Notes: generated by a model not told the origin, from the sequence alone. 64,000 bases of DNA from Elusimicrobiota bacterium (GCA_043827405.1 JBDRPD010000062.1:64001-128000); one strand, 5' to 3'; positions 3,182 through 41,923 are shown, counted from the stretch's first letter. A program made the numbers and translations.

Positions 3182-3186
3182 CGACT

Positions 3187-19019: not shown

Positions 19020-19063
19020 CAGGGAGCATAAAAACGCCAGGCTCTTGGCGGCGGGACGCTTTA

Positions 19064-19681
19064 CTATTTTTTGCGACCCCGCTGCTGCATCCTTTCGCCC
19101 CGGCGGTCCATGCGCTCGCCCTTGTCGTCCAGGCGCTCGCCCTGACGCTGCATTCTCTTGCCCTTGCGCTCGAGCTTGCCGCCGGCGCGTTCGCGGCCAT
19201 GCTTCTGCATGCGCTCGCCCTTGCGCTCCAGGCGCTCGCCCCGCCGCTCGCGCTTCTCGCCCTTGCGTTCCAGGCGCTCGCCCCGGCGCTCACGCTTCTC
19301 TCCGCGCTTCTCAAGGCCCTTGCCGTGCCCGCGCGGGCCTTCGCCCGCCTGCTCCTGCCGCCGCTCTCCGCGCTTCTGCATGCGCTCGCCCTGGCGGTCC
19401 AGGCGTTCGCCTTTGCGCTCCAGTTTGTCCGCTTTACGCTCGAGCTTGTCGGCGGCGCGGTCCTTGCCGTGCTTTTCCAGACGGTCGGCCTTGCGCTCGA
19501 GCTGTTCTCCCTTGCGCTCGAGCTTCTCGCCCCGGCGTTCGCGGCGCTCGCCGCGGCCCGGCCCGGCCTCCGGGCTCTCGCTGGCGGCGGCGGGAGCTTC
19601 CAGGTCTTCTTCGGCCCGGACGTCTACGGTCAAGGTGAGGGCAAGGCATGCGGCGGTGAGCAGGAACAGGCTGGTCTTCAT
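19064..19681 (-). CDS. Secreted low-complexity charged repeat protein
   Basis: Signal peptide MKTSLFLLTAACLALTLTVDVRA, RBS GAGGAG, then 7-aa repeats of ERKGE(K/R)(L/M/R) type. Confidence 0.8.
   Translation of the reverse strand: MKTSLFLLTAACLALTLTVDVRAEEDLEAPAAASESPEAGPGRGERRERRGEKLERKGEQLERKADRLEKHGKDRAADKLERKADKLERKGERLDRQGERMQKRGERRQEQAGEGPRGHGKGLEKRGEKRERRGERLERKGEKRERRGERLERKGERMQKHGRERAGGKLERKGKRMQRQGERLDDKGERMDRRGERMQQRGRKK
19076..19550. repeat. Degenerate 21-nt coding tandem repeats
   Basis: Recurrent units such as GCGCTCGCCCTTGCGCTCCAG and GCGCTCGCCCCGGCGCTC; boundaries approximate. Confidence 0.7.
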
Positions 19682-19848
19682 GGCGGTCTCCTCAGAAATT
19701 GCGTTTATGATTCGGCTCCGCAGGCCAAGGGTGTAGCAGACGGATTATACCTCATTATCCGTCGTCGTCATCGGCGAAACCTTGTGCTTGACGGCTTCAA
19801 CTTTGCTAACCTGTTTTTACACTTTAATTGACCAACTAGGAGGACGTT

Positions 19849-20229
19849 ATGGGGAGCAAGACGAAGTCGTATATCGGCGCCGGCGTGAGCCTTGTGGCCG
19901 TCGCGGCCGGGGGCTATTTCCTCTACGGGAAGGACGGCCAGAAAAACCGCGACAAGATCAAGGGCTGGGCCCTGAAGGCCAAGGGCGAAATGCTCGAGCA
20001 TATCGAGAAGCTCAAGCAGGTCAACCAGAAGGCCTACAACGATGTCGTCGACCGCGTTGCGAAGCGCTACAAGAAGTTCAAGCAGGTCGACAAGAAGGAA
20101 CTGCAGCGTCTGGTCAAGGAGAGCAAGGGCTTCTGGAACAGCATCGCCAAGAAGGTTCCTGAGACCGAGGCCAAGATCGCCCGGGTCAACAACCGGCGCA
20201 AAAAGGCCGCGCCGCGCCCGAAGAAGTAG
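19849..20229 (+). CDS. Hypothetical membrane-anchored Lys-rich protein (YtxH-like topology)
   Basis: RBS AGGAGG; N-terminal hydrophobic IGAGVSLVAVAAGGYFLYG followed by a charged helical domain. Confidence 0.75.
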   Translation: MGSKTKSYIGAGVSLVAVAAGGYFLYGKDGQKNRDKIKGWALKAKGEMLEHIEKLKQVNQKAYNDVVDRVAKRYKKFKQVDKKELQRLVKESKGFWNSIAKKVPETEAKIARVNNRRKKAAPRPKK

Positions 20230-20251
20230 TTTTTCGCAGCCGCAGACACCG

Positions 20252-20290
20252 CAAGCAGCCGCCCGGCAGTACCGGGCGGCTGTTTGTTTG
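20252..20290. terminator. Terminator hairpin between convergent genes
   Basis: CAAGCAGCCGCCCGG-CAGTA-CCGGGCGGCTGTTTG followed by TTTG. Confidence 0.75.
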
Positions 20291-20315
20291 CGCGAGTGGG
20301 GGCAAACGCCGGGTC

Positions 20316-20654
20316 TTACTTCTTCCGGGGGACTTCGATGACGCAGCGGTTCTCGAGCGACCGGCTGGTGCGATTGCCGCCGTTGCGGGCGCGGGCCACG
20401 ATGCGGACCTTGCCCGGTTTCTCCGGCTTCCAGTCGTACCAGTAGTAGCCTGCCGCGGCGCGGCACTTGCTCCAGCCTTTTCCGTTGAACGCGACTTCCA
20501 CGTCGTGGCCGGCGCTCGCGCCGATGCGGATCGTATAGTCGCCGGGACGGATTACTTCTCCGTCCTGGGGGTAGTCGATGAATACCGTGCGGGCATGCGG
20601 CTTTGCGGGCGTCTTCTTCGCGGGCGTCTTATTGTTGGTCGTCTTTCCTGCCAT
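20316..20654 (-). CDS. Hypothetical protein (small Ig-like beta domain with Lys-rich N-tail)
   Basis: RBS GGAGAG before ATG 20654; IDYPQDGEVI..YTIRIGA..VEVAFNG.GW..CR.AAGYYWYDW..IVARAR. Confidence 0.7.
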   Translation of the reverse strand: MAGKTTNNKTPAKKTPAKPHARTVFIDYPQDGEVIRPGDYTIRIGASAGHDVEVAFNGKGWSKCRAAAGYYWYDWKPEKPGKVRIVARARNGGNRTSRSLENRCVIEVPRKK

Positions 20655-20795
20655 ACTCTCTCCATGGTTTGACATTCCCGGGGGGATGTCGAGTGCGCGC
20701 CCATTATACATGAAGCCGTCGACGGAAACCTTGATTTAGATCAACGACGGCGCGGGGGGGTTCCCGCCCCGCATTGTAAAAGATAGAATTGCGCC

Positions 20796-22163
20796 ATGCC
20801 CGATCAGCATGAATGCCGTTATCCGAACGGCAATGTTCTCTACCGGAGGCTGAAAAAGACCTATCCCCGGATCGTCCGGGGCGAGGGGATCATGCTCTAC
20901 GACGCGGAGGGCAAGGAGTATATTGACGCCTGCTCGGGAGCGTACGTCACCAATATCGGTCATGGCGTGCGCGAGGTCGCCGACGCGCTGTCGGCACAGG
21001 CTCGCCGCTTCGCCTACGTCAACGGTACGGCTTTCACCCACGACGCGGCCGAAGAAGCCGCGTATGAGCTCGCCAAACGCTGTCCGCATGGTCTCGACAA
21101 GGTCTTCCTGCTGCTCAGCGGCTCCGATGCCGTGGAGGCGGCGCTCAAGACCGCCCGCCAGTACTGGGCCGCGCTGGGCAAGCCCGAGAAGAAGAAGCTC
21201 TTTGCCCTGACGCCGAGTTATCACGGCAGCGGCCTGTTGGCGCTGTCCGTTTCCGGCCGGCCGGAGTATCAGAAGACCTACCAGGACTGGATCGTGGATG
21301 TGGTGCGGGGCCCGGCGCCGTATCCCTACCGCTGCCTGTGCCGCGGCAAGGATCCGGTCTGCCCCTCCTGCACGGGCACCGGCATCGAAAAAAGGATTCT
21401 GGAGGAAGGGCCGGAAAAAGTCGCCGCGATCATCATCGAGCCGATCGGGGGCTCCTCGACCGGCTGTTCCGTGCCCCGTCTTGAGTTCCTGCGCAACCTG
21501 CGCGCTTTCTGCGACAAGTACGACGTGCTGTTGATCGCCGACGAGGTGCTGACCGGCGCCGGACGCACCGGGACCTGGTCGGCGCTCGAGCACTACGGCG
21601 TGGTCGCCGACCTGCTGGTCTTCGGCAAAGGCATTACCGGCGGCTATGCGCCGCTCTCGGCGCTGGTGACTTCGGAAAAGATCGCCGACGTCTTCGCGCG
21701 CAGCAGCGGCAGCCTGCCGCATAATCAGACTTTCTCGCACTTCTCCGTCTCCTGCGCCGCCTGCGTCGCGGCGCTGGCGTACCTCAAGGAGCATGGGCTC
21801 ATCGAGCGCTGCGCACGGATGGGAGAGAAGCTGCAGGAAAAGCTGCAGATCCTGCGCGAGCACCCGAATGTCGGCGACGTTCGCGGCAAGGGCTTGCTGG
21901 CGGGCGTGGAGTTCGTGGAAGACCGGGAGTCCCGGATGCCGTTCGAGCGGCGGCGGCGCTGCGCGGAAACGTTCGCGCAGCTGGCGCAGGATATGGGGCT
22001 GGTGGTCTGGCCGAACTACGGACAGGCGGACGGGGTCAACGGGGACCTCGCGATGCTGGCGCCGCCGTTTACGGTCACGGAGAGCGAGCTCGACCGCATC
22101 ATCGATTTATTCCGGGGCGCGCTCAAAGCGACGCTTAATTCCATGCGCAAGGACGCGGCATAG
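20796..22163 (+). CDS. Class III PLP aminotransferase, YodT-like (candidate beta-amino-acid transaminase)
   Basis: YIDACSGA..TNIGHG, SGSDAVEAALK.ARQYW, SYHG, IADEVLTG.GRTG, FGKG (PLP Lys), GD...LAPPF. Resembles B. subtilis YodT as recalled. Confidence 0.85.
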   Translation: MPDQHECRYPNGNVLYRRLKKTYPRIVRGEGIMLYDAEGKEYIDACSGAYVTNIGHGVREVADALSAQARRFAYVNGTAFTHDAAEEAAYELAKRCPHGLDKVFLLLSGSDAVEAALKTARQYWAALGKPEKKKLFALTPSYHGSGLLALSVSGRPEYQKTYQDWIVDVVRGPAPYPYRCLCRGKDPVCPSCTGTGIEKRILEEGPEKVAAIIIEPIGGSSTGCSVPRLEFLRNLRAFCDKYDVLLIADEVLTGAGRTGTWSALEHYGVVADLLVFGKGITGGYAPLSALVTSEKIADVFARSSGSLPHNQTFSHFSVSCAACVAALAYLKEHGLIERCARMGEKLQEKLQILREHPNVGDVRGKGLLAGVEFVEDRESRMPFERRRRCAETFAQLAQDMGLVVWPNYGQADGVNGDLAMLAPPFTVTESELDRIIDLFRGALKATLNSMRKDAA

Positions 22164-22181
22164 TCCGCGGCGGAGGTTTTT

Positions 22182-23762
22182 ATGGCGACGGCAGCGAAGA
22201 CGGACAAAATCACCTATACGTCGGCGAATGTCGACATGACGGAGTTCCATTTACAATTCGATAAAGCGCTGGCGAAGCTCCGCGCCGAGGCCGGCAGGAG
22301 CTACCCGCTTTATATCGGCGGCCGGGCGGTGGAAACGAAGAACGAGCCCGTGGTCGACGTTTCGCCGATCGATACTTCGCTGGTTCTCGGCCGGTTCGCC
22401 AGCGCCGGCCACGACGAGGTGGACGCCGCGATCAGAAACGCCTACGGCGTGCGCAAGGAGTGGGAGCATACGCCCTGGCCGGAGCGCGTCAAGATTATGC
22501 GCCAGGCGGCGGCGCTGGTGCGCGAGCGCAAGTATGAGCTGGCCGCCCTCATGGGGCTTGAGGTCGGCAAGAATCGGATGGAGTGCATCGGCGACGCCGA
22601 GGAGTCGGCCGACCTCATCGATTACTACGCCCAGCAGATGGAAGACCACAAGGGCTACATCCAGGAGCTCAATAAGATTACGCCGATCGAAACCAATACC
22701 GATATCCTGCGGCCCTTCGGCGTCTTCGTCTGCGTCGCGCCCTTTAACTTCCCGCTGGCGCTGTCCTGCGGCATGTCGTCCGCCTGTCTGGTGGCCGGCA
22801 ACGTCATCGTCTATAAGCCGTCAAAGGATACGCCATGGACGGGCCTGAAGCTCTACGAGATCTACCGCGACGCCGGCGTCCCCGCGGGCGCCTTTAACTT
22901 CATAACCGGCCGGGGCGCGGATATGGGCGATTCGCTGTGGCGGCATCCGCTGGTCGGCGGCATCGTTTTCACCGGCTCCAAGCAGGTCGGCATGCATATG
23001 TACCGGGAGTTCAGCAGCCGGTGGGTGAAGCCCTGCATGCTCGAGCTGGGCGGCAAGAACGCGACCGTGGTCATGGACTCGGCGGATCTCGACGCCGCGG
23101 CGGAGGGCATTATGAAGTCGGCCTGGGGGCTGCAGAACCAGAAGTGCAGCGCCTGCTCCCGGGTTTACGCCCACAAGAGCGTGGTGCAGGAGCTCACCGC
23201 CAAGATCATTGAGAGAACCCGGGCGATCAAGATGGGGGATCCGACGGAGAAGGACGTCTACTTCGGCCCCGTCATCAACGGCAGCTCGATCAAAAAGTAC
23301 GAGCAGGCCGTGGCGCAGGCCAAAAAGGACGGGGAGATTCTTATCGGCGGCGAGCGCCTTAAGGGCGGCGTCTTCGATAAAGGCAATTTCCTCGCGCCGA
23401 CCATCGCCCGGCTTCCGCTGTCGAGCTCGCTGTTCATGGAGGAGCTGTTTGTGCCTTTTCTGGCTATCGGCGAGGTCGAGACGCTGGATCAGGCGCTCGA
23501 AGAATGCAATAAGGCCGAGTACGGCCTGACCTCCGGCATCTTCTCCAAGAACAAGGAGGAGGTCGAGCACTTCTTCGACATGATCGAGACCGGTGTGACC
23601 TATGCCAATAAGCGCACGGGGGCCACTACCGGCGCCTGGCCGGGCGCCCAGGCCTTCTGCGGCTGGAAGGGCTCGGGCTCGACCGGCAAGGGGGGGTGCG
23701 GCCCCTACTACGTCGCGCAGTTCATGCGCGAGCAATGCCGTACGGTTATCGAGGAGGTGTGA
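22182..23762 (+). CDS. Aldehyde dehydrogenase, 1-pyrroline-5-carboxylate dehydrogenase (RocA/PutA)-like
   Basis: PFNFPLA, FTGS..VG, LELGGKN (Glu), QKCSACSR (Cys), EYGLT, TGA..G.Q.F.GWKGSGSTGKGG.GP.Y..QF; RBS GGAGG. Confidence 0.88.
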   Translation: MATAAKTDKITYTSANVDMTEFHLQFDKALAKLRAEAGRSYPLYIGGRAVETKNEPVVDVSPIDTSLVLGRFASAGHDEVDAAIRNAYGVRKEWEHTPWPERVKIMRQAAALVRERKYELAALMGLEVGKNRMECIGDAEESADLIDYYAQQMEDHKGYIQELNKITPIETNTDILRPFGVFVCVAPFNFPLALSCGMSSACLVAGNVIVYKPSKDTPWTGLKLYEIYRDAGVPAGAFNFITGRGADMGDSLWRHPLVGGIVFTGSKQVGMHMYREFSSRWVKPCMLELGGKNATVVMDSADLDAAAEGIMKSAWGLQNQKCSACSRVYAHKSVVQELTAKIIERTRAIKMGDPTEKDVYFGPVINGSSIKKYEQAVAQAKKDGEILIGGERLKGGVFDKGNFLAPTIARLPLSSSLFMEELFVPFLAIGEVETLDQALEECNKAEYGLTSGIFSKNKEEVEHFFDMIETGVTYANKRTGATTGAWPGAQAFCGWKGSGSTGKGGCGPYYVAQFMREQCRTVIEEV

Positions 23763-23763
23763 G

Positions 23764-25158
23764 ATGAAAACTAAAAAGAAGCCCCGGGCGAAGAAGAAAA
23801 CCGGGCTGAAGCGGCCCGCGGCGTCCGCGCGCCGGGACTATCCCCGCATCGTCACGCCGCCTCCGGGTCCCAAGGCCCGGCAAATCATCGATATCGACGA
23901 TCGCTATTCCTCGACGAGCTATATGAAAATCTACCCGCTCGTCGTCTCGCACGGCGAAGGCTCGATGGTCGAGGACGTCGACGGCAACCGCTACATCGAC
24001 TTCATGGCGGGCATCGCCGTGGCCACCACCGGCTATGCCCATCCCAAGGTCGTCGCCGCGGTGCGCGAGGCGGCCGGCAAGTTCTTCAGCATGTGCTCGA
24101 CCGACTGGTACTACGAGAGCTTCGCGAAGCTGTGCGAGCGGCTCGCTCATCTCGCGCCCGGCGACAATAAGAAGCGTGTTTTCCTGACCAACTCGGGCGC
24201 CGAGGCGGTCGAGGGAGCGATCAAGCTGGCGCGCAACTCGACCAAGCGGACGGCCCTGATCGCCTTTCGCCGCGCTTTCCACGGCCGCACCTACGGCGCC
24301 ATGAGCCTGACCTCGAGCAAGGTCGTGCAGCGCGCCTTCTTCATGCCGATGCTGCCGGGGGTGTATCACACCGACTACCCGGACCCGTACCGCGTTGTCT
24401 ACGACCGCCGGCGCTTCAAGAACGTCTCGGAGTACTGCATCTGGCAGATTCATGAGGACCTGTTCCAGCGCCATGTGCTGCCGGAGAACGTGGCGGCCAT
24501 CTTCATCGAGCCCATGCTCGGAGAGGGCGGCTATGTGCTTCCCCCTAAGGAGTTCCTGGTCAGCCTGCGCAAGCTGTGCGACGAGTTCGGCATCCTGCTG
24601 GTCTTCGATGAGATTCAGTCCGGCGCCGGGCGCACCGGCCATATGTGGGCCGCCGACTACTACGGGGTCGAGCCGGACGTCCTGCTGACGGCCAAGGGGA
24701 TCGCTTCGGGCATGCCCATCGGAGCGATCATCGCCAAGGAGTCGGTCATGAAGTGGAAGCCGGGTTCGCACGGCTCGACTTTCGGCGGCAACCCCGTCTG
24801 CTGCGCGGCGGCGCTCGCGACGCTCGATCTGCTCGAAGGCGGGCTGATGGAGAACGCGCGCCGGATGGGCGCGCGGTTGATGAAGGGGCTGGAGCGGCTG
24901 AAGAACAAGTTCACGATCATCGGCGACGTACGCGGCACCGGGCTCTTCATCGGCGTCGAGTTCGTCAAGAGCCGGCGTACCAAGGAGCCCGCGAAGTCCT
25001 TCGTCAACGAGCTCTACATGCGCGCTTTCCACAAAGGCCTGCTGCTGCTGCCCTGCGGCGAGAGCGTGGTGCGCATCGCCCCGCCGCTGAACATCAGCGA
25101 GTATGATGTGGACAAGGGGCTCGAGATCCTCGAGAAATGTCTCGACGAGCTGACGTGA
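23764..25158 (+). CDS. Class III PLP omega-aminotransferase (GabT/ornithine-lysine omega-AT-like)
   Basis: PPGPKA, DVDGNRYIDF.AGIAV, NSGAEAVEGAIK, FHGRT.GAMSLT.SK, GEGGY, DEIQSG.GRTG, TAKG. Start ATG 23764. Confidence 0.88.
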   Translation: MKTKKKPRAKKKTGLKRPAASARRDYPRIVTPPPGPKARQIIDIDDRYSSTSYMKIYPLVVSHGEGSMVEDVDGNRYIDFMAGIAVATTGYAHPKVVAAVREAAGKFFSMCSTDWYYESFAKLCERLAHLAPGDNKKRVFLTNSGAEAVEGAIKLARNSTKRTALIAFRRAFHGRTYGAMSLTSSKVVQRAFFMPMLPGVYHTDYPDPYRVVYDRRRFKNVSEYCIWQIHEDLFQRHVLPENVAAIFIEPMLGEGGYVLPPKEFLVSLRKLCDEFGILLVFDEIQSGAGRTGHMWAADYYGVEPDVLLTAKGIASGMPIGAIIAKESVMKWKPGSHGSTFGGNPVCCAAALATLDLLEGGLMENARRMGARLMKGLERLKNKFTIIGDVRGTGLFIGVEFVKSRRTKEPAKSFVNELYMRAFHKGLLLLPCGESVVRIAPPLNISEYDVDKGLEILEKCLDELT

Positions 25159-26063
25159 CGGGCAAGGTCGTCTCAATGCGGGAGGCCGTGGCCTCCTGCG
25201 TGCAGGACGGCGCGACGGTCGTCATCGAGGGGTTCACGCACCTCATCTGCTTCGCGGCGGCGCACGAGATCATCCGGCAGGGGCGGCGGGACCTGACCGT
25301 CTGCCGCCTGACGCCGGACCTCATCTACGACCAGTTGATCGGCGCGGGCTGCGTGAAGAAGCTGGTCTTCTCCTGGGCCGGCAATCCCGGCGCCGGCTCG
25401 CTGCATGCCTTCCGCCGGGCGCTGGAGGGCAAATCCGATAAGCCTCTCGAGATCGAGGAGTACTCGCACTTCGGCATGGTCGCGCGCTTTCAGGCCGGTG
25501 CGGCCAACCTGCCGTTCTGGCCGCTGCGCAACTTTATGGGCACCGATCTCCCCGTCGTCAACGACCGCATCAAGAGCGTGACCTGCCCGTTTACCGGCGA
25601 GGTCCTCGCCGCGGTGCCGGCGCTCAACCCCGACGTGACCATCATCCACGCCCAGCGCGCCGACAAAAACGGGAACGCGCAGGTCTGGGGGCTGCTGGGG
25701 GTGCAGAAAGAAGCGGCCTTCGCCTCCAAGAAGGTGATCGTGGTCGTCGAGGAACTGGTTGACGAGCAGGTCGTGCGCTCCGATCCGAACCGGACCTTGA
25801 TCCCGGGCGCCATCGTCAGCGCCGTGGTCGTTGAGCCTTTCGGCGCCCATCCTTCCTTCGCCCAAGGCTACTACGACCGCGACAACGCCTTCTACCTGTC
25901 GTGGGAGAAGATCGCGCGCGACCCCAAGGACTTCGCCAAGTACCTCGACGAGTTCGTCATGGGCGTCAGCGGCCGGGCCGAGTACATGGAAAAGCAGGAA
26001 GGGCTCGCCGCGCGGCTCAAGGCGGATCAGCGCGTCTGCGCCGGGGTGAACTATGGCTTCTGA
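25155..26063 (+). CDS. Family I CoA-transferase subunit A, CatI/PcaI (3-oxoadipate)/GctA type
   Basis: EGFTHLI.FAA.HEIIRQG, TPDLIYDQLIGAGC..KL.FSW.GNPG.GSLH, CPFTGE.LAAVP, HAQRAD..GN, HPS.A.GYY.RDN.FY. GTGA overlap with the upstream gene. Confidence 0.9.
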   Translation: MTGKVVSMREAVASCVQDGATVVIEGFTHLICFAAAHEIIRQGRRDLTVCRLTPDLIYDQLIGAGCVKKLVFSWAGNPGAGSLHAFRRALEGKSDKPLEIEEYSHFGMVARFQAGAANLPFWPLRNFMGTDLPVVNDRIKSVTCPFTGEVLAAVPALNPDVTIIHAQRADKNGNAQVWGLLGVQKEAAFASKKVIVVVEELVDEQVVRSDPNRTLIPGAIVSAVVVEPFGAHPSFAQGYYDRDNAFYLSWEKIARDPKDFAKYLDEFVMGVSGRAEYMEKQEGLAARLKADQRVCAGVNYGF

Positions 26064-26832
26064 GACTCTCGACTATACGCTGAGCGAGATGATGGCCGTG
26101 GTTTCGGCGCGGGAGCTCAAGGACGGCGAAGTGGTTTTCGTCGGCATCGGCCTGCCCAACTTGGCCTGCAATTTGGCGCGCGTGACGCATGCCCCCAATC
26201 TGACCTTGATCTACGAGTCCGGCGCCGTGGGCGCCGTGCCTGAGCGGCTGCCGGTCTCGATCGGCGATCCGGCCCTGGTGACGGGTTCGCTCATGGTGGC
26301 GACCATGCCCGATATTTTTCAGTATTTCCTGCAGGGCGGCAAGATCGACGCCGGATTCCTCGGCGGCGCCCAGATCGACCGCTGGGGGAATATCAATACC
26401 ACGGTGATCGGGGACTACGCCAAGCCGAAGGTGCGCCTGCCGGGAAGCGGCGGCGCTCTTGAGATCGCCGTTCACTCGAAGCGGACGCTTATCATCAGCA
26501 AGTTGTCCAAGCGGGTGTTTCCGGAGGCGGTGGACTTCGTGACCAGCCCCGGCTACCGCTACCGCGGCAGGAGCCGCAAGGAGTTCGGCATGCCGGGCGC
26601 GGGACCGGTTAAGGTTATCACCGACAAGTGCATTCTCGCAGCCGATCCGGAGTCCGGGGAGATGACGCTGTCCGCGCTTTATCCGGGGGTCGAAGCCGCG
26701 GAGGTTCGCGACAGCGTGGGCTGGGACCTTAAAGTCCGGCCGACGCTTGGCGGTGTCGAACCGCCGACCGCGGAAGAGCTGCGGCTGCTGCGCGAAGAGC
26801 TCGATCCCGATAAGCTTTTCCTCAAGGGCTGA
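26053..26832 (+). CDS. Family I CoA-transferase subunit B, CatJ/PcaJ/GctB type
   Basis: EMM, FVGIGLP, LIYESG (catalytic Glu), LP.SIGD, LQGG.ID.GFLG.AQID..GNINTTVIGDY.KPKVRLPG.GGA. Confidence 0.9.
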   Translation: MASETLDYTLSEMMAVVSARELKDGEVVFVGIGLPNLACNLARVTHAPNLTLIYESGAVGAVPERLPVSIGDPALVTGSLMVATMPDIFQYFLQGGKIDAGFLGGAQIDRWGNINTTVIGDYAKPKVRLPGSGGALEIAVHSKRTLIISKLSKRVFPEAVDFVTSPGYRYRGRSRKEFGMPGAGPVKVITDKCILAADPESGEMTLSALYPGVEAAEVRDSVGWDLKVRPTLGGVEPPTAEELRLLREELDPDKLFLKG

Positions 26833-26837
26833 GCCGC

Positions 26838-27434
26838 GTGACGCGCAACGTCTACGTCTTTCGTCACGGCGAGACGGATTGGAATGCCGAGCGGCGGCTG
26901 CAGGGGCATTCCGACGTGAAGCTCAATGCCGCCGGCCGCGAGCAGGCCCGGGACCTGGCCAAGCTTCTGCGCCCCCTGGACCTCCCAGCGGTGCTGTGCT
27001 CCGATTTATCGCGTGCGGCGGAGACCGCGCGCATCGTCTTTTCTGACGCCCCGGAGCTGATCCAATACAAGCGCGAGCTCCGGGAAGCCTATCTCGGCAA
27101 GCTGCAGGGTACGCTGCGCAGCGAGTATGAACGTGTTCACGGCAAGGAGCAGTTCTCCCGCTGGCTGTCGGTGAAGGACGAGGATCAGGATTTCTGCTTT
27201 CCCGGGGGCGAGACCAAGCTGCAGCATCTTGCGCGGGTGCGGACCTGCCTCGAGTCCTACCTCGCCGTTCACGACTTCGCGCGGATCGGCGTCTGCACTC
27301 ACGGCGGGACCATCCGGCGCTTCGTCCATTTTGTCCGGGGGTCCGGCGCCGAGCCCGTATCCATCGCCAACTGCGCGGTCTACCACCTGAAATACGACGG
27401 TGTTCGCTGGGCTTACGTCGGGAAGCTGTCCTGA
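26838..27434 (+). CDS. Histidine phosphatase family protein
   Basis: FRHGETDWN, QG..D..LN..G..QA, SDL.RA.ETA, LRE, THGG. Confidence 0.9.
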   Translation: MTRNVYVFRHGETDWNAERRLQGHSDVKLNAAGREQARDLAKLLRPLDLPAVLCSDLSRAAETARIVFSDAPELIQYKRELREAYLGKLQGTLRSEYERVHGKEQFSRWLSVKDEDQDFCFPGGETKLQHLARVRTCLESYLAVHDFARIGVCTHGGTIRRFVHFVRGSGAEPVSIANCAVYHLKYDGVRWAYVGKLS

Positions 27435-27436
27435 AA

Positions 27437-28264
27437 TTAGTTGAAAACGACGTTCTTTTGGAAACGGCTCTTGAGGATCGCGCCTTGCGCCGGGTAGTTT
27501 TTAAGTTCGCGGTCGAGTTCCTGCAGCCGCTGCGCCAGCGGCGGGTGGCGGCTGTCAAAAGAACCCTTGCTGGGCGCGTGCTCGCCGCCGTAGAGGCGCT
27601 TGAGCGCCGCCGGCAGGCCGTCCGGGTGATAGCCGCTCGCCGCCAGTATCCCCAGCCCCTTATGATCGGACGCGGTTTCCTGCTGGCGGGAATAGCCCTT
27701 GTCGGCGATGTACTCGACGGCGAGCTCGGCGAGCCGGTGGGCGCCGCCGCCGCCATTGAGCTTCTCCAATCCCAATCCCGCGCCCTTCATTACGCGGATC
27801 CCTTGGATGGCATGCTTGTCGTCGACGTGTACGATTTCATGCGCCAGCACGCCGGCGAGCTGGGCTTCGTTGCCCAAGCGCTGCAGCAGGCCCCGGGTTA
27901 CAAAGACATAGCCGCCGGGAGCGGCATAGGCGTTGACTGAGCGGGAGTTCAGGATGCCGAAATGATAGGTCATGCCGCCGCGTTTCGCCTTGCGGATCAG
28001 CGTGTTCCCTACCAGGCCGACATAGCGCGTCAGCGCGTCGTCTTCGTAGATGCCGAAGCGGCCGATGAGCCGGGCGGCGACCTCGCGGCCGAGCTCCCTC
28101 TCGCTTTCCGGCGTCAGGTGAAACTCGGCGGCGATTTCCGCGCCCTTCTGCAGATACTTCTCCCCTTTACGGCCGAGCTCCTTGAGCTCATACTTGCGCT
28201 CAGCGCGGGAAGGGGCGAGTCCGGCAAGCAGCAGGGCGGCGGAGAGAACGGCGGCGCGCCTCAA
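27437..28264 (-). CDS. Secreted M48-family zinc metalloprotease
   Basis: Signal peptide; NAYAAPGGYVFVT.GLL, AHEIVH (HExxH), YSRQQE..SD, HPP...R. Confidence 0.88.
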   Translation of the reverse strand: MRRAAVLSAALLLAGLAPSRAERKYELKELGRKGEKYLQKGAEIAAEFHLTPESERELGREVAARLIGRFGIYEDDALTRYVGLVGNTLIRKAKRGGMTYHFGILNSRSVNAYAAPGGYVFVTRGLLQRLGNEAQLAGVLAHEIVHVDDKHAIQGIRVMKGAGLGLEKLNGGGGAHRLAELAVEYIADKGYSRQQETASDHKGLGILAASGYHPDGLPAALKRLYGGEHAPSKGSFDSRHPPLAQRLQELDRELKNYPAQGAILKSRFQKNVVFN

Positions 28265-30237
28265 AGCATTTTCTCTTGCTCGAAGATGCGGGCGTCCTCC
28301 CAGAAGATAAAGGCGCCAAAGAGCAGAAAGAGCAGGCCCAGCGGCAGCAGCGCGCCGGTCCCCTGCAGCCGCTCTCGCAGCTTGGCGAAGGGCTGTTCGC
28401 TCATGCGTCGGAAGGCGGATTTTTTCTTCTCAGCAGCGGCCGCGGTCTTGGCGGCGGCGGCGGTCGCGCTCATCTCTACCGCGATCCCGTCGGAGGACAT
28501 CATCTGGTCGACGGCCTCGCTGCGCTGCTGCTGCGCCGCGACGGGCCGGGCGCCGTCTTTCTGCTGCTTGTCCATTTCCGGCTGGTAGTTCGCGGCGGCG
28601 GCGAAAAAAAGCGCGGCAGCGCCGCAGAGGACGAAGAAAAAGGTGCGGATAGGGACGGCCTCTTCGGGATGGGTGCTGCGGTTCTTGAACAGCGCCAGGA
28701 AGTAGAAACATGCGCCGGCCAAGGCCAGGACAGGAGCCCGTTGATGGCGGGCTTGTGCGTCAAGCAGGACGCGCCAGGTGAGGCTGTCGGGAAGGCCGAA
28801 CTGAAAGGCGGCGGCGGCCGACAGCGCCGAGAACAAGAGCACTCCGACGATCGTCAGCCGGCTCTTGCGCGACTGGGAGGCCAGGCGCACCGTCATGAGA
28901 AAGCCGAATACGGACAGCGGCAGGAATATCGCGCGGCCGGCCGCGGCCAAGGACTCCGGCGTGGGCGGTGCGCCTTGGATGCCGGCGAAATACAGCTGCG
29001 CGACGCCGAGACTCAGCAGGGCGAGCGAGACGACGCCGAGACCGGCGGGAGCGGCGCCCGCCGAAGCGAGGGTCAAGAGGACCGGGGCGCTCAGGTAGAC
29101 CAGGTCCTTCATCCCGGCGAAGACGGCGCTGGCGCCCGTCGCGAGCCACAGCACGGCGGAGACCAGCGGCTTCCAGCTGACGGGATTAAGCGCATGCGGA
29201 TCGTCAGGATCATCGATCTCTTGGAAAGTTTCGCCGGGAGAATCCGCCGGCGGCAGCGGGGTGCGTAAAGTCGGCGTCATGCCGCCCGGGTTGGGCGCGG
29301 GGATCGGTACCGCCGCTCCTTCCACGTGCGTGGGAGACGGACGCTTGCCGGGCGTTATGATGCCGAGGTCGATGACTTGGCCGCCGGTCATCATTTCGTT
29401 GGCGTCGCCGACGACCATGCCCGGGGAGTTGAGCGCCTGCAGAAGTTCCGTTACGTCCTTGTAGCGCTCCGCCGGCTTCTTGGCCATCATCTTCATGATG
29501 ACCTCGGCGGCCATGGTGCTCACGTCGGGATGAACCGAGCGGGCATCCGGTACCGGATTATTGCAGTGCATGGCCACGATATCCTGCGGCGTCGGGCCCA
29601 TAAACGGCGGCTGCCCCGTGATCATGTGAAAATAGGTCGCGCCCATAGCGTAGATATCGCAGCGGCCATCCACCGCCTGGCCGTATATCTGCTCCGGCGC
29701 CATGTAGAGCGGCGTGCCGATAACTTCGGCGGCCTGGGCTTTGCCCGCAGGGTCCGTCTTGAGCGCCAAGCCGAAGTCGGCGAGGCGGATAGCGCCGTCT
29801 TTGGCCAGCAGGATGTTGGAGGGTTTGATGTCGCGGTGGACGATGCCGTGCTTATGCGCTTCCTGCAGCCCTTCGAGCGAGGCTTTGATGATCTGCAGGC
29901 AGCGCAGCGGTTCGATCTTGCCCGAACGTCCGAGCAGGTCCTCGGCGGTCTCACCGTCGACGAACTGCATGACGATGTAGTTGAGGTTGTTCTCCGCTCC
30001 CACGTCGTAGACCTGGGTGATGCGGGGATGTTCGAGGCGCGCCGCCGCCCGCGCTTCCAGCTGGAAGGATTCCACCGCGCCCGGACGGGCGGCGACTTTG
30101 GGATAAAGGAACTTGATGACGACGACGCGATCGAGGCGGACATGATGGGCCTGGTAGGCGACGCCCATGCCGCCCTCGCCAAGCTTCTTGAGGATTTGGC
30201 AGCCGCCGACTGTTTTGCCAATCATGGGATCGGGCAT
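28261..30237 (-). CDS. Hanks-type Ser/Thr protein kinase with multi-pass membrane C-terminus
   Basis: LGEGGMG, VVIK, HRDIKPSN, DFG, GTPLYMAPE; Pro-rich linker, then several hydrophobic segments. Confidence 0.93.
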   Translation of the reverse strand: MPDPMIGKTVGGCQILKKLGEGGMGVAYQAHHVRLDRVVVIKFLYPKVAARPGAVESFQLEARAAARLEHPRITQVYDVGAENNLNYIVMQFVDGETAEDLLGRSGKIEPLRCLQIIKASLEGLQEAHKHGIVHRDIKPSNILLAKDGAIRLADFGLALKTDPAGKAQAAEVIGTPLYMAPEQIYGQAVDGRCDIYAMGATYFHMITGQPPFMGPTPQDIVAMHCNNPVPDARSVHPDVSTMAAEVIMKMMAKKPAERYKDVTELLQALNSPGMVVGDANEMMTGGQVIDLGIITPGKRPSPTHVEGAAVPIPAPNPGGMTPTLRTPLPPADSPGETFQEIDDPDDPHALNPVSWKPLVSAVLWLATGASAVFAGMKDLVYLSAPVLLTLASAGAAPAGLGVVSLALLSLGVAQLYFAGIQGAPPTPESLAAAGRAIFLPLSVFGFLMTVRLASQSRKSRLTIVGVLLFSALSAAAAFQFGLPDSLTWRVLLDAQARHQRAPVLALAGACFYFLALFKNRSTHPEEAVPIRTFFFVLCGAAALFFAAAANYQPEMDKQQKDGARPVAAQQQRSEAVDQMMSSDGIAVEMSATAAAAKTAAAAEKKKSAFRRMSEQPFAKLRERLQGTGALLPLGLLFLLFGAFIFWEDARIFEQEKML

Positions 30238-30305
30238 AATCGATTAAGTATGAGAATAGCAGTACATTTAGCTGTTGGCAAGTCATCATTTGCTAAAATG
30301 AGCAC

Positions 30306-31664
30306 ATGAAAAAAGCGGCACGCACGAGCAAAATGAAAGCGCAGGTTTCCGAACAGCCCTTCAAATATCCCATCGCCAAGCCCTTCGCGGAGCCGGACTG
30401 GCGTCGTTTTGCGGTCTGGAAGGATGCTTCACGCGCGGACTGGGAGAGCGCGCTGTGGCAGCGGCGCCATTCGATCAAGAACCTCAAGGAGTTCAAGACC
30501 GCGTTCGGCGAGCATCTCGCGGACGATCTGCTGGCCGACATCGACCGGGATCAGCAGCAGTTCGCGACCATGTCGATGCTGATCCCTCCGCAGATGATCA
30601 ACACCATGGATGAGAAGGATCTGCGCGCAGATCCCGTCCGCCGCTATATGGCGCCCGCCGCCAGCGAGCGCCATCCCGAGTGGTCGAATCACCCCAAGGC
30701 TTCGCGCGACAGCCTGCACGAAGCCGACATGTGGGCCGTCGAAGGACTGACGCACCGCTATCCGACCAAGGTGCTGGCCGAACTGCTGCCGACCTGCCCG
30801 CAGTACTGCGGGCACTGCACGCGGATGGACTTGGTGGGCAATAATACGCCGCAGGTGCAGAAGGTCGGCTTCGCCATGAAACCGAAGGAGCGCTACGCGG
30901 CGATTCTCGACTACCTGCGCCGGACGAAGTCGGTGCGCGACGTCGTCATCTCCGGGGGAGATATCGCGAACCTGCCCATTCAGGTGCTCGAGCCGTTCGT
31001 AAACTCGGTCATGGAACTCCCCAATGTCCGGGATGTCCGGCTTGCAACCAAGGGCCTGATGGGGCTGCCGCAGCACTTCCTGCAGGATGAGGTGCTTAAA
31101 GGCTTCGAGCGCATCGCCAAGAAGGCGCATGAATGCGGCGTCGAAATCGCCGTCCATACGCACGTCAACAGCGCGCGTCAGCTGACCCCGCTGGTCGCTA
31201 AAGCCGTGCGTAAGCTCCTGGATATGGGCTACCGCGACGTGCGCAACCAGGGGGTGCTGATGCGCGGCGTCAACGCGACCGCGAAGGATCTGCTGGAGCT
31301 GTGCTTCACTTTGCTCGACCATGCCAAGATCATGCCGTACTACTTCTACATGTGCGACATCATCCCCAACTCCGAGCATTGGCGCCTCGCCGTATGGGAG
31401 GCGCAGCAGCTGCAGCATGACATCATGGGCTATCTCCCGGGCTTCGCGACCCCGCGTATCGTCTGCGACGTGCCGTTTGTCGGGAAGCGCTGGGTTCAGC
31501 AGTGCGGCGGCTATGACCGGGAAAAAGGAATATCCTGCTGGACCAAGAACTACCGCACCAGCATTGAGGCGGACGATCCCGATGCGCTGACGCGCAAGTA
31601 TGAGTATTTCGATCCGATCTATACGCTGCCGCCCGCCGGACAGGAATACTGGAGCAAGCAATAG
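30306..31664 (+). CDS. kamA: Lysine 2,3-aminomutase (KamA-family radical SAM/PLP enzyme)
   Basis: GLTHRYPTK, CPQYCGHC (CxxxCxxC), DVVISGGD, RNQGVL.RGVN, MPYY.Y.CD, DVPFVGK (PLP Lys position). Confidence 0.85.
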   Translation: MKKAARTSKMKAQVSEQPFKYPIAKPFAEPDWRRFAVWKDASRADWESALWQRRHSIKNLKEFKTAFGEHLADDLLADIDRDQQQFATMSMLIPPQMINTMDEKDLRADPVRRYMAPAASERHPEWSNHPKASRDSLHEADMWAVEGLTHRYPTKVLAELLPTCPQYCGHCTRMDLVGNNTPQVQKVGFAMKPKERYAAILDYLRRTKSVRDVVISGGDIANLPIQVLEPFVNSVMELPNVRDVRLATKGLMGLPQHFLQDEVLKGFERIAKKAHECGVEIAVHTHVNSARQLTPLVAKAVRKLLDMGYRDVRNQGVLMRGVNATAKDLLELCFTLLDHAKIMPYYFYMCDIIPNSEHWRLAVWEAQQLQHDIMGYLPGFATPRIVCDVPFVGKRWVQQCGGYDREKGISCWTKNYRTSIEADDPDALTRKYEYFDPIYTLPPAGQEYWSKQ

Positions 31665-31668
31665 GTTA

Positions 31669-31857
31669 ATGTTTTACCGGATGCCGAAAGGCGACGGCGC
31701 GTTTCTCGCCGGGCTCTTGGTCTTTTCCGCCTTGGCCTTTCTCATTCCGGCGCTGCGCACCGCCAAGTTTGCGGGCGTCGCATATTTCGGCTGGTGGATG
31801 GCCGCCCTGATGTTTCTGGGACCGCTGTGGGCGCTGCTGCGGATGCTTAAGAAATGA
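31669..31857 (+). CDS. Small 2-TM membrane protein preceding the symporter (SSS accessory-subunit-like)
   Basis: 62 aa with two hydrophobic segments (G..YFGWWM..LM); ATGA overlap with the SSS gene. Confidence 0.7.
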   Translation: MFYRMPKGDGAFLAGLLVFSALAFLIPALRTAKFAGVAYFGWWMAALMFLGPLWALLRMLKK

Positions 31858-33278
31858 GCGTCGAAGCGGTCCTGGTCGTTCTCTATCTCGCGTGCTGCAT
31901 CGCTATCGGCGTCTATTTCGCGCGTCAAGGCCTGTCCTCGCAGGAGGAATACTGGGTCGCGGGGCGCAATATCGGCGTCGCCGCCAATGCCATGGCGATC
32001 ATGGCGAGCCTGGCCAGCGGCGGCTCGATCATCGGCGTCATGGGCCTGGCCTACGCCTACGGCATCCCGTATACGCTGTCGCTGTTCGCCGGAGCGATTT
32101 TGGGATTTCCCATGGCCGCGGTGCTCGTCGCCGGGCCGCTGCGTAAGTTCGGGGGCTTCACGCTGTCCGATTTCCTGTCCTACCGCTACCCGCACGCCGC
32201 CGTGCGCTGGCTGGTCCCGCTGTTTGTCGTCTTCGCCTTCACCGTCTACATCATCGCGCAGATGAAGGCCGCCGGCATCACGGCGGAGGTCCTGCTGGGA
32301 CTGCCCTACAAGCCGGCGGTGACGGCGGCGGCGATCGTCTTCATCCTCTATGTGTCGATCGGAGGCATGCTGGCGGTTACCTGGACCGATATCGTCCAGG
32401 GGTCGCTGATGCTTTGCGTCGTGCTGGGTACGGTCTGCGCGCTGATGGTGAAGCAGGGCGCGCCGCTCGCCCTGCTGGAGCGGGCGACGGCGGCGGCGCC
32501 GGAGCTCGGTGAGATGACGGATGCGCCGCTGTCGAGCCTGCTGGGAATTTTCGTGCTGTGGGCCGCCGCCATTCCGGTGATTCCGCATATCGTCATGCGG
32601 GTGTTCACCGCGAAGGATCCGCGGGGAGCGCGGCTGTCGCTGAACCTGGCGATGATCGCCTACAGCGCTATGATCCTCGGCGCTGTTTTCATCATCGTCC
32701 CGGTCGGCAAGATGATGTTCCCCGATCTCGCGGACCAGGACCGCGTCTTCCTCATGGTCATGCAGAGCGAGTTCCCTCCGGTGGTGCGCGGCCTCGCGAT
32801 CGCCGCGGTCATGGCCGCCGTCATGTCCACGACCGACGCCCTGCTGCTGGCCTGCAGTGCGGCCGTCACCCATGACCTTCTCGGCCCTTGGCTCGAGCGG
32901 TCCTCTCCCCGGGCGCGCAAGTGGGTTACGGTCGCCGTGCCGTGGGCCATCGGCCTGGCCGCGATGTGGCTGGCCTATTCGCCGCCCGCGGTCATCACCA
33001 AGTTCTACTCCGGCGCTATCGGCTTGCTGAGCGCCAGCCTGTTCGTCCCGCTGATCGCCGGCCTATGGTGGAAGCGGGCCAATACCTTGGGCGGCGTGCT
33101 GTCATTGTGCGCCGGAGCCGCGGTCTACCTCGTCGTTCAGTACGGGACGAGCGCGCCCGCGTTCTCCGCGGTCCTATACGCGCTGGGGGCGAGCGCTGCC
33201 GGCATGGGGGTCGGCGGCCGGCTGGGCGTCGTGTCCGCACCCGCCATCCTCGCGCGCATCGACGAGCTGCACGGGTAG
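31854..33278 (+). CDS. Sodium:solute symporter (SSS/PutP-ActP family)
   Basis: YWVAGR, TLSDFL..RY, GGMLAVTWTD.VQG, PHIVMR.FTAKD, AAVMST.D, GLWWKRAN; about 13 TM segments. Confidence 0.95.
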   Translation: MSVEAVLVVLYLACCIAIGVYFARQGLSSQEEYWVAGRNIGVAANAMAIMASLASGGSIIGVMGLAYAYGIPYTLSLFAGAILGFPMAAVLVAGPLRKFGGFTLSDFLSYRYPHAAVRWLVPLFVVFAFTVYIIAQMKAAGITAEVLLGLPYKPAVTAAAIVFILYVSIGGMLAVTWTDIVQGSLMLCVVLGTVCALMVKQGAPLALLERATAAAPELGEMTDAPLSSLLGIFVLWAAAIPVIPHIVMRVFTAKDPRGARLSLNLAMIAYSAMILGAVFIIVPVGKMMFPDLADQDRVFLMVMQSEFPPVVRGLAIAAVMAAVMSTTDALLLACSAAVTHDLLGPWLERSSPRARKWVTVAVPWAIGLAAMWLAYSPPAVITKFYSGAIGLLSASLFVPLIAGLWWKRANTLGGVLSLCAGAAVYLVVQYGTSAPAFSAVLYALGASAAGMGVGGRLGVVSAPAILARIDELHG

Positions 33279-33823: not shown

Positions 33824-33883
33824 ATGGGCATCGTACCACATTTACTTGAAGAGTTCTCTGATGACTGCTATCCTCATTGGCGT

Positions 33884-34936
33884 ATGAGCAAGCCGCAGAC
33901 TCCGCGTCCGTCGCGCGGCCGGCCGGATCCCCGGCCGATCGACTGGGAGCAGGTAACCGACGAGGAGCTCCTCGCCAAGCGCATCTGCGACCTTCCGCTC
34001 AAGATCGAGGGGACGGTCCTGGAAGAGTGGGTACGGACCGTCTACCGGGAACTGGAGACGAAAGGGATAGGGTTTCACCCCGAGGTCTATTTGGGCGACG
34101 AGTGGTTCTCTCCCGAAGGTGATCCCATTATCAGCATCCCGTACTACTTGGCGCATCCGCGGCTCATCAAGCTGGAACGCAGCCGCGTGCTGGAAGCCGA
34201 GGGTGAATCGCGGGAGTGGTTTCTTAAGCTGCTGCGTCACGAGATGGGCCATGCTTTGTCGCATGCATACGGTCTCGGTCGCAGTAAGGGCTACCGCAGC
34301 GTTTTCGGCGACCCCGCGCAGGAGTACCCGGACGGCTTCCGTCCCCGGCCGTACAGCCGGAAGTACGTGCAGCATCTTTTCGACTGGTACGCGCAGCTTC
34401 ATCCGGACGAGGACTACGCGGAGACTTTCGCGGTTTGGCTGACCCCGGACAAGGACTGGCGCCGGGAATATGCGTCCTGGCCGGCGCTGCGGAAGCTGGA
34501 GTTCGTCGACCGTCTGATGGGCGGCATCCGCGGACGGCGGCCCAAGAAGAGCCGCGCGCCGAAGTGGCGGCACCTGCGCTCGATCCGCATGACGATCGCC
34601 TATTCGCACAAGCTCAAGCGCCGGGCGATGGAGGAGGACTTTCCCGACTACTTCGACCGGGATCTGCTGGCTATCTTCGCAAGCGGGGGGGAAGCCGAAA
34701 AAGCCGGCTGCTTTCTGCGCCGGCACCGCAAGGAGCTGGTGCGCAGCATCGCGCAGTGGACGCTGGCGAAGAAATATACGGTCAATGAGCTCGTCACGCG
34801 GCTCGCCGAGCGCGCCGACGAGCTTGCGCTGCGCGTCGCGCGGCCGGAGCTTACGACGCTGACCCGGGTGAGCGTCTGCCTGACGGCGATGGCCAAGAAC
34901 TACTTCCTGACCGGCAAATTCAAGAGGCGCGTCTGA
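33884..34936 (+). CDS. Putative zinc-binding metallopeptidase
   Basis: DEWFSP, PYYLAHPRL, LRHEMGH (HExxH), YAQ.HPDED.AETFAVWL. Confidence 0.85.
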   Translation: MSKPQTPRPSRGRPDPRPIDWEQVTDEELLAKRICDLPLKIEGTVLEEWVRTVYRELETKGIGFHPEVYLGDEWFSPEGDPIISIPYYLAHPRLIKLERSRVLEAEGESREWFLKLLRHEMGHALSHAYGLGRSKGYRSVFGDPAQEYPDGFRPRPYSRKYVQHLFDWYAQLHPDEDYAETFAVWLTPDKDWRREYASWPALRKLEFVDRLMGGIRGRRPKKSRAPKWRHLRSIRMTIAYSHKLKRRAMEEDFPDYFDRDLLAIFASGGEAEKAGCFLRRHRKELVRSIAQWTLAKKYTVNELVTRLAERADELALRVARPELTTLTRVSVCLTAMAKNYFLTGKFKRRV

Positions 34937-41921: not shown

Positions 41922-41923
41922 CT

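Follow-up and report, generated by a model that had tools for sequence, protein, structure and literature searches.

To our knowledge, the known bacterial routes from beta-lysine depend either on a B12-dependent 5,6-aminomutase or on acetyl protection of C6. In Pseudomonas B4, and with the yodT-yodS-yodR-yodQ-yodP-kamA genes of B. subtilis, the C3 amino group of beta-lysine is reportedly removed by transamination, after which the product is processed as its CoA ester. Here we describe a gene set in a 64,000-nt stretch of DNA from the Elusimicrobiota bacterium GCA_043827405.1 (JBDRPD010000062.1:64001-128000; this whole stretch is called the window, and positions are counted within it). The set comprises two class-III aminotransferases (AT1 and AT2), an aldehyde dehydrogenase (ALDH) resembling 1-pyrroline-5-carboxylate (P5C) dehydrogenase (P5CDH), a CoA-transferase of two subunits (CoTA and CoTB) and a divergent member of the KamA family. 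It differs from the Pseudomonas B4 and yod arrangement in having an extra aminotransferase and ALDH, and in that its CoA-transferase resembles glutaconate CoA-transferase (Gct) and not the short ScoAB type. The clostridial lysine fermentation pathway, which proceeds through KamA, KamDE, Kdd, Kce and Kal, or a Kat variant, according to PMC3149608, would share its start with the window set, namely the conversion of lysine into beta-lysine by lysine 2,3-aminomutase, and the same clade of KamA occurs in such clusters of the Nocardioidaceae type. That pathway then shifts the amino group to C5 via B12, whereas the route proposed for the window would oxidise C6 and would have no B12 step.

Two further systems resemble the proposed route. 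Ornithine catabolism by RocD and RocA uses the same families in the same order, that is, an omega-aminotransferase, a cyclic imine, a P5CDH-type ALDH and transamination of the remaining amine, so that the window set would mirror the conversion of ornithine through P5C and glutamate into 2-oxoglutarate; the proposed substrate, beta-lysine (beta-homo-ornithine), has one additional CH2, next to the carboxylate. The lower beta-ketoadipate pathway (PcaIJ or CatIJ, followed by PcaF) has the same end as the one that we propose, from 3-oxoadipate through 3-oxoadipyl-CoA to succinyl-CoA and acetyl-CoA. However, the transferase in the window operon is not PcaIJ, and no ring-cleavage or Paa genes (intradiol dioxygenase, PaaA/C) were found in the genome, which is 98% complete.

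We consider it fairly probable that lysine is converted in this organism through beta-lysine, 3-aminoadipate semialdehyde, 3-aminoadipate and 3-oxoadipate (or its CoA ester) into succinyl-CoA and acetyl-CoA, with neither a B12-dependent 5,6-aminomutase nor acetyl protection. The original prediction had proposed such a pathway from the window alone. Its central part, in which KamA feeds a set of aminotransferase, P5CDH-like ALDH and aminotransferase leading to 3-oxoadipate, came through each of the in-silico checks suggested with it: linkage to kamA is conserved, a PcaF-like thiolase is encoded elsewhere in the genome, and kamD and kce were not found there. The parts that had assigned CatIJ and a phosphatase to the set did not hold. 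Our observations concern the families to which the genes belong, residues that KamA and CoTB have kept, and the conserved linkage and co-distribution of the genes.

In the proposed route, KamA would turn L-lysine into beta-lysine (3,6-diaminohexanoate), and AT2 would take the amino group at C6 to give 3-amino-6-oxohexanoate, a gamma-amino aldehyde expected to close into a five-membered imine, the P5C homologue 1-pyrroline-5-acetate. The P5CDH-like ALDH would oxidise it to 3-aminoadipate, and AT1 would turn this into 3-oxoadipate, or would act on the CoA ester after CoA transfer. The ester would be made by the Gct-like CoA-transferase or, in genomes without CoTAB, by a PcaIJ/ScoAB-type pair, and a PcaF-like thiolase encoded elsewhere would then yield succinyl-CoA and acetyl-CoA. 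The sodium:solute symporter encoded after kamA, with its small partner protein, would import the substrate, for which we propose lysine or beta-lysine.

Gene families and retained residues

The KamA-family protein gave no Pfam match at E<=0.001; Radical_SAM was reached only at E=0.0039, and a LAM_C domain is absent. It also lies under the NCBIfam cut-offs for lysine 2,3-aminomutase (TIGR03820, 177.7 against 525.4) and for TIGR00238 (169.9 against 199.2). It aligned with the solved lysine 2,3-aminomutase 2A5H at 157.6 bits, and it carries the radical-SAM cluster motif CxxxCxxC (as CPQYCGHC), whose C164, C168 and C171 do not vary across an alignment of eight sequences (the window KamA, five that belong or are related to its clade, and two canonical KamA proteins from classical clusters). 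R173, D351 and D388, invariant in the same eight sequences, correspond to R134, D293 and D330 of 2A5H, and K394 lies near the pyridoxal phosphate lysine in the alignment with 2A5H. We take R134, D293 and D330 to bind the carboxylate and the epsilon-ammonium of lysine, with both Asp residues holding the latter. In glutamate 2,3-aminomutase, the lysine-binding Asp pair is replaced by Lys/Asn.

We also searched with KamA as the seed and fetched 80 loci (60-75% identity), whose labels include Myxococcota, Acidobacteria, Gemmatimonadota and Actinomycetota. In 10 of the 80, kamD adjoins a gene of the same KamA clade (60-71% identity), and these loci also hold kamE, a kdd-like dehydrogenase gene, a hot-dog protein gene and an Lrp regulator gene. 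The presence of kamD, kamE and kdd beside the same clade indirectly supports lysine as the substrate of this clade. We propose, on the basis of these sequence comparisons, that the window KamA is a lysine 2,3-aminomutase making beta-lysine.

Several other genes were seen beside kamA in these loci. A second KamA paralogue (25-30% identity), which has the LAM_C domain, adjoins the divergent kamA in loci labelled Myxococcota or Bdellovibrionota (L008, L012, L052, L053, L060, L063 and L064). An Amidohydro_3 protein of about 544 aa is encoded next to kamA in actinobacterial loci (L042, 11265-12899; L050, L055, L056, L067, L069, L072 and L076), and occurs with both the classical kamDE type and the AT/ALDH/CoA-transferase type. 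In Gemmatimonadota-labelled loci, a GntR/FCD gene is divergent from kamA.

AT2 scored above the cut-off of PRK05769, the archaeal ornithine-omega-aminotransferase/racemase group (599.2 against 552), and its best match in the PDB was 7VNO (404.9 bits), which is presumably PH1423 of P. horikoshii. PH1423 is tabulated in PMC9986279 as an ornithine delta-aminotransferase also taking lysine and omega-amino acids. The best NCBIfam matches of AT1 were PRK07483 (405 bits, cut-off 485) and PRK06917 (401 bits, cut-off 535), and its best PDB matches were omega-transaminases, including 3I4J (243.8 bits) and the beta-alanine:pyruvate transaminase 4B98. PMC6522883 gives 3I4J as the solved structure nearest to B. 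subtilis YodT, and 3I4J falls in the transaminase group of AT1, although orthology of AT1 and YodT is unproven. Orthologues of AT1 in the order share 53-62% identity. From these family assignments, AT2 (ornithine-omega-aminotransferase-like) probably acts at C6 and AT1 (omega/beta-transaminase group) at C3.

The best NCBIfam matches of the ALDH were models of L-glutamate gamma-semialdehyde dehydrogenase, both under their cut-offs (PRK03137, 421 bits against 648; TIGR01237, 403 against 659.65), and its nearest solved relative was the Thermus P5CDH (1UZB/2BHP, 325 bits); no other type of aldehyde dehydrogenase scored above 254 bits. We propose that it is a 3-aminoadipate-6-semialdehyde (1-pyrroline-5-acetate) dehydrogenase.

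These assignments bear on an alternative in which the carboxyl group is made before the aminomutase acts: a lysine epsilon-aminotransferase and the ALDH would give 2-aminoadipate, the KamA-like protein would be a 2-aminoadipate 2,3-aminomutase giving 3-aminoadipate, and the second aminotransferase would turn this into 3-oxoadipate. The gene content fits this order of steps equally well, and AT2 weakly matches the model for 2-aminoadipate transaminase (322 bits, cut-off 650). However, KamA retains D351 and D388, the counterparts of the residues that hold the epsilon-ammonium in 2A5H; genes of this KamA clade also accompany kamDE/kdd, for which beta-lysine is required; and the ALDH is P5CDH-like and does not resemble piperideine-6-carboxylate dehydrogenase (NF050084, 268 against 730). 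We therefore regard a start from 2-aminoadipate as improbable.

The CoA-transferase had been predicted to be CatIJ, which is not borne out: the pair scored far under the models for pcaI/scoA (TIGR02429, 42.4 against 128.5) and pcaJ/scoB (TIGR02428, 44.6 against 243.55). The best PDB match of CoTA was GctA (1POI_A, 149.4 bits; ScoA 3CDK, only 31 bits) and that of CoTB was GctB (1POI_B, 168.2 bits), while chains of the Sco/Pca type gave only 31-45 bits against CoTA and CoTB. The catalytic Glu of the 'ESG' motif is aligned with that of GctB and kept in CoTB. Judging by sequence, CoTA/CoTB is a member of the glutaconate CoA-transferase family (family I, Gct-like) and not PcaIJ. GctAB of Acidaminococcus fermentans (1POI) is thus the nearest solved relative of both subunits and has the catalytic Glu in common with the window pair, but the window pair has another genomic context, which holds no hydroxyglutarate pathway genes. 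The Gct-like family also includes non-transferases, such as 5MZW and 6CO6, which were weaker matches here.

The histidine-phosphatase gene that follows CoTB was rejected as a member of the pathway. The original prediction had listed it in the operon, but it is not conserved with the module, and a counterpart of at least 40% identity was found in 0 of 25 relative loci and 0 of 80 metagenome loci. The symporter gene after kamA is also present in a relative (L124, 71% identity), where a small hydrophobic protein (50% identity) is likewise encoded between kamA and the symporter. In other lineages (L132, L133 and L065), an APC amino-acid permease gene lies within the module instead of the symporter gene.

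Linkage, co-distribution and downstream enzymes

Linkage of kamA to the aminotransferase, ALDH and CoA-transferase genes, which the original prediction had made a point to check, is conserved in two phyla. Among the relatives of the window, AT1-ALDH-AT2-CoTA-CoTB-kamA forms one unbroken same-strand operon in L118, L119 and L142, and L120 has the same operon from ALDH onward, through kamA. An M48 metallopeptidase gene is inserted at the same position as in the window in L124, L125 and L138 (45-49% identity), and it is absent in L118, L119, L120 and L142, where kamA directly follows CoTB. Some genera of the family thus have this M48 insertion after CoTB in common. The Ser/Thr kinase gene at 28261..30237 had no match in the relatives' loci examined. 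In another family (L132 and L133) the order is AT1-ALDH-AT2-APC permease-kamA, with malate synthase and isocitrate lyase genes upstream of the module on the same strand in L132. In L134, of family f3, a glutamate dehydrogenase gene adjoins AT1. In two metagenome-assembled genomes (MAGs) labelled Actinomycetota (L042 and L046), kamA-Amidohydro_3-ALDH-AT2-CoTA-CoTB-AT1 lie on one strand.

As a separate observation, an acyl-CoA dehydrogenase gene lies directly upstream of kamA in L126 (12265-14272) and L134 (8063-10076), both of family f3, and in L014 (7954-9348), a MAG labelled Elusimicrobia; in L126 and L134 a 3-hydroxyacyl-CoA dehydrogenase gene adjoins it.

We next consider the distribution of these genes in 101 genomes of the order, the genome of the window included, using orthologue-level matches tallied by hand. 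KamA was found in 85 of the 101 genomes, AT1 in 84, ALDH in 82, AT2 in 84 (86 matched, of which two with only a 42% paralogue were dropped), CoTA in 62 and the PcaF-like thiolase in 85. Of these genomes, 45 have all six genes, 18 have every gene except CoTA and seven have no gene of the six; the remaining 31 showed mixed gene patterns and are mostly incomplete assemblies. The AT1/ALDH/AT2 core and KamA occurred together in 79 genomes, the core only in seven, KamA only in six and neither in nine. For the core and the PcaF-like thiolase, the corresponding numbers were 80, six, five and 10. Two genomes of the sister genus g2 (G090 and G142) have none of the six genes. In their place they carry a CoA-transferase-kce-kdd-kamA cluster, whose kamA is canonical and has LAM_C, plus kamD. 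Conversely, kamD was not found in five module-positive genomes.

The genome of the window itself has no alternative kamDE-kdd-kce set to account for kamA, as far as tblastn, PF09043 and PF05853 can tell, and this agrees with what the original prediction needed. No tblastn matches were obtained for kamD, kamE, kdd or kal; the kamD model PF09043 gave 0 matches, whereas the same model matches in G090, G142 and G352; and PF05853 gave 0 matches, so that kce was not found. Among the 51 window open reading frames (ORFs) scanned against Pfam, there was no kamD, kamE, BKACE, GNAT acetyltransferase, M20 deacetylase or ring-cleavage dioxygenase, as had been predicted for kamDE, kce and the acetyltransferase, deacetylase and ring-cleavage genes; for a beta-lysine acetyltransferase or deacetylase this result covers the window, no search for ablB/yodP having been made in the remainder of the genome. 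The pcaF gene that had been predicted to lie outside the window has a candidate: a PcaF-like thiolase is encoded elsewhere in the genome, and its best matches are 3-oxoadipyl-CoA thiolases, with scores just below the cut-offs (531 against 605 and 522 against 597). A pair of the PcaI/PcaJ-ScoAB family lies on another contig, above the cut-offs (287 against 128.5 and 316.5 against 243.55).

An alignment of six ALDH orthologues was then used as the query for metagenome contigs, and it retrieved 80 loci (44-69% identity). Their flanks held AT2 in 38 loci, AT1 in 23, Gct-like CoTA in 22, ScoAB-type genes in two and kamA in one. The contig with kamA (L185) has kamA-AT2-ALDH with AT1 divergent. On contig L172, one strand carries AT1-ALDH-AT2 followed by a PcaR/PcaU-family regulator, PcaI, PcaJ and a PcaF-like thiolase. 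The scores there were 266.6 against 284.75 for the regulator, 237 against 128.5 for PcaI, 250 against 243.55 for PcaJ and 542 against 597 for the thiolase, and the AT2 counterpart reached 552.9 against 552 for PRK05769. This gene order ties the AT1-ALDH-AT2 trio to 3-oxoadipate enzymes independently of the window. Just after the L172 operon, at 16903-18153 (-), lies an EpmA/GenX (EF-P-(R)-beta-lysine ligase) gene (370 bits, above the cut-off), another gene related to beta-lysine; its position beside the trio may be a coincidence.

These results can be set against the possibility that the window holds an ordinary operon for ornithine/arginine or for diamines and omega-amino acids, and that kamA is an unrelated neighbour. 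Such an operon would lead, for example, from ornithine to glutamate, or from cadaverine through 5-aminovalerate and glutarate to glutaryl-CoA. AT2 is ornithine-aminotransferase-like and the ALDH is P5CDH-like, as this would require; Gct-type transferases use C5 dicarboxylates such as glutarate; neither a proline dehydrogenase nor any other P5CDH that exceeds the cut-off was found in the genome; and most metagenome ALDH loci have no kamA nearby. However, kamA is translationally adjacent within the same operon in several relatives and in the Actinomycetota MAGs, the genes show an all-or-none co-distribution with kamA, and the ALDH lies under the curated P5CDH cut-offs. In addition, the join with PcaR/PcaIJ/PcaF-like genes in L172 misfits a role in the breakdown of ornithine or cadaverine. 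An ordinary operon therefore seems to us a poor candidate.

A further alternative would proceed through CoA esters from the start, again without acetylation. The CoA-transferase would turn beta-lysine into beta-lysyl-CoA, and AT1 would convert this into 3-oxo-6-aminohexanoyl-CoA, which a thiolase would split into acetyl-CoA and 4-aminobutyryl-CoA, leading on through 4-aminobutyrate (GABA) to succinate, with AT2 as the GABA aminotransferase and the ALDH as the succinate semialdehyde dehydrogenase. AT2 is related to GABA aminotransferases (TIGR00700, 387 bits), and the scheme would parallel the Pseudomonas B4 route. Nevertheless, 18 or more genomes have kamA, AT1, ALDH and AT2 without a Gct-like CoA-transferase; the ALDH is closer to P5CDH than to other solved ALDHs (<=254 bits); the L172 trio is joined to PcaR/PcaIJ/PcaF-like genes; and, on chemical grounds, unprotected 4-aminobutyryl-CoA and 3-oxo-6-aminohexanoyl-CoA should cyclise readily. 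We therefore think it unlikely that activation to the CoA ester comes first.

For the route through 3-aminoadipate, the same 18 or more genomes with the core and without CoTA fit a free-acid sequence up to 3-oxoadipate. The cores without CoTAB, the amino-acid transporters within modules, the glutamate dehydrogenase gene of L134 and the glyoxylate-shunt genes of L132 together fit a catabolic free-acid route yielding acetyl-CoA. A thiolase or another CoA enzyme in the place of the missing CoTAB was looked for and rejected, as the gene there is for an APC permease, for an M20 peptidase, for a GDSL-like protein or for an unknown protein, and not for an activating enzyme. In the five genomes checked, a ScoAB/PcaIJ-type pair is present elsewhere.

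Several points weigh against the route through 3-aminoadipate. All of its substrates and intermediates, and the sequence of its steps, are inferred. KamA, the ALDH, AT1 and both CoA-transferase subunits fall under the curated cut-offs of every named NCBIfam family, and the thiolase lies outside the operon and under the pcaF cut-off. In the window itself, the interval of about 2.9 kb between the operon and kamA is occupied by the M48 peptidase and Ser/Thr kinase genes, both on the minus strand, and in family f3 kamA lies 7-21 kb from the other module genes, with unrelated genes between. AT2, or a larger part of the module, lies within 10 kb in only six of the 80 loci fetched with KamA (L013, L022, L032, L065, L042 and L046), one further locus (L014) has CoTB only, and most of the 80 have neither the module nor the kamD arrangement. 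Similarly, kamA lies in the flanks of only one of the 80 ALDH metagenome loci, many of these contigs being short, but several having flanks of 7-10 kb. Four genomes (G430, G431, G367 and G088) have the set without ALDH, and the seven with the core and no KamA match, mostly incomplete assemblies, include G150, which is 97% complete. Finally, the sampled genomes of the order are mutually related, so that the counts over the 101 genomes are descriptive and overstate independence.

Gene layout of the window

The features of the locus are listed in Table 1. The tight operon from AT1 to the phosphatase gene is present as originally described, and its gaps of 18, 1, -4, -11 and 5 nt were confirmed from real start codons. 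Of the downstream genes, kamA, the small membrane protein and the symporter had been placed about 3 kb away on the same strand; they are there, but the interval holds the two minus-strand genes mentioned above. The likeliest start of the small membrane ORF is 31669, 5 nt after the kamA stop, rather than 31600, and the protein had no Pfam match. A Shine-Dalgarno-like GAGGAGG precedes the ATG of AT2, and no gene within the window was recognised as a regulator of the operon.

Table 1. Genes of the window from AT1 to the symporter, with the match or feature on which each assignment rests
Feature	Positions	Strand	Basis
AT1, class-III aminotransferase, omega/beta-amino-acid:pyruvate transaminase group	20796..22163	+	PF00202 305.8 bits
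ALDH, P5C-dehydrogenase-like aldehyde dehydrogenase	22182..23762	+	PF00171 424 bits
AT2, class-III aminotransferase, archaeal ornithine-omega-aminotransferase / GABA-aminotransferase group	23764..25158	+	PRK05769 599.2 bits
CoTA, CoA-transferase subunit A, glutaconate-CoA-transferase-like	25155..26063	+	PF01144 84 bits
CoTB, CoA-transferase subunit B, glutaconate-CoA-transferase-like	26053..26832	+	PF01144 117 bits
Histidine-phosphatase family gene, 5 nt past CoTB	26838..27434	+	PF00300 139 bits
M48 metallopeptidase	27437..28264	-	PF01435 85 bits
Ser/Thr protein kinase	28261..30237	-	PF00069 169.7 bits
KamA, divergent KamA-family radical-SAM/pyridoxal phosphate aminomutase	30306..31664	+	CPQYCGHC motif, 2A5H alignment
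Small hydrophobic protein, 62 aa	31669..31857	+	sequence; overlaps symporter start by 4 nt
SSS sodium:solute symporter	31854..33278	+	PF00474 199 bits

Upstream of AT1, at 16758-20711, there are four ORFs (753, 205, 126 and 131 aa) with coding-like GC3 and no Pfam match. Directly past the symporter region, 33824-36832 encodes a Peptidase_Mx-like protein, an ATP-grasp enzyme of the D-Ala-D-Ala-ligase type and an EamA transporter; ATP-grasp pairs also lie upstream of kamA in L020 and L038. A redox run at 37114-43507 comprises a NuoE-like 2Fe-2S protein, a Fer2/Fer4 protein, a protein with a glutamate-synthase-type domain, and a 1074-aa protein in which NuoF-like FMN/4Fe-4S domains are fused to a GltD-like pyridine-nucleotide oxidoreductase. 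At 3148-4444, a HipA N-terminal domain and a HipA C-terminal kinase domain are encoded on two adjacent ORFs; either hipA is split here, or this is a toxin-antitoxin arrangement like HipBST. A large subunit of the methylmalonyl-CoA-mutase type (58211-59818) and a separate B12-binding-domain protein (62764-63234) are encoded with a T2SSE secretion ATPase and a GAF-HD gene between them; therefore, the organism has B12 enzymes despite the lack of kamDE.

A possibly portable trio and the proposed breakdown of lysine

In the open-access literature, we found no account of a 3-aminoadipate pathway or of a route from beta-lysine to 3-oxoadipate, older subscription-era work (for example, that of the 1970s-80s on Pseudomonas B4) lying outside this search. 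It is credible that the window encodes an undescribed variant of beta-lysine catabolism. We also lean, by a narrow balance, towards a broader reading in which a widespread pathway that needs neither B12 nor acetylation joins lysine to the lower beta-ketoadipate pathway, with 3-aminoadipate as a new central intermediate and with new activities for the ALDH and the Gct-like transferase. In this broader reading, the AT1-ALDH-AT2 trio would be portable as a module, and its partner would differ between lineages: kamA, a Gct-like transferase or PcaR-PcaIJ-PcaF.

If this is true, a lysine degradation pathway would be added to metabolic maps, as a third beta-lysine route built from ornithine-type enzymes, and 3-aminoadipate and 1-pyrroline-5-acetate would be predicted as new metabolites. 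The large divergent KamA clade and the P5CDH-like ALDH family, which is left unnamed by curated models, would each gain a role, and the Gct-like transferase would be a new 3-oxo- or 3-aminoadipate CoA-transferase. The pathway would also explain the "orphan" PcaIJ/PcaF-like genes of genomes that have no aromatic catabolism.

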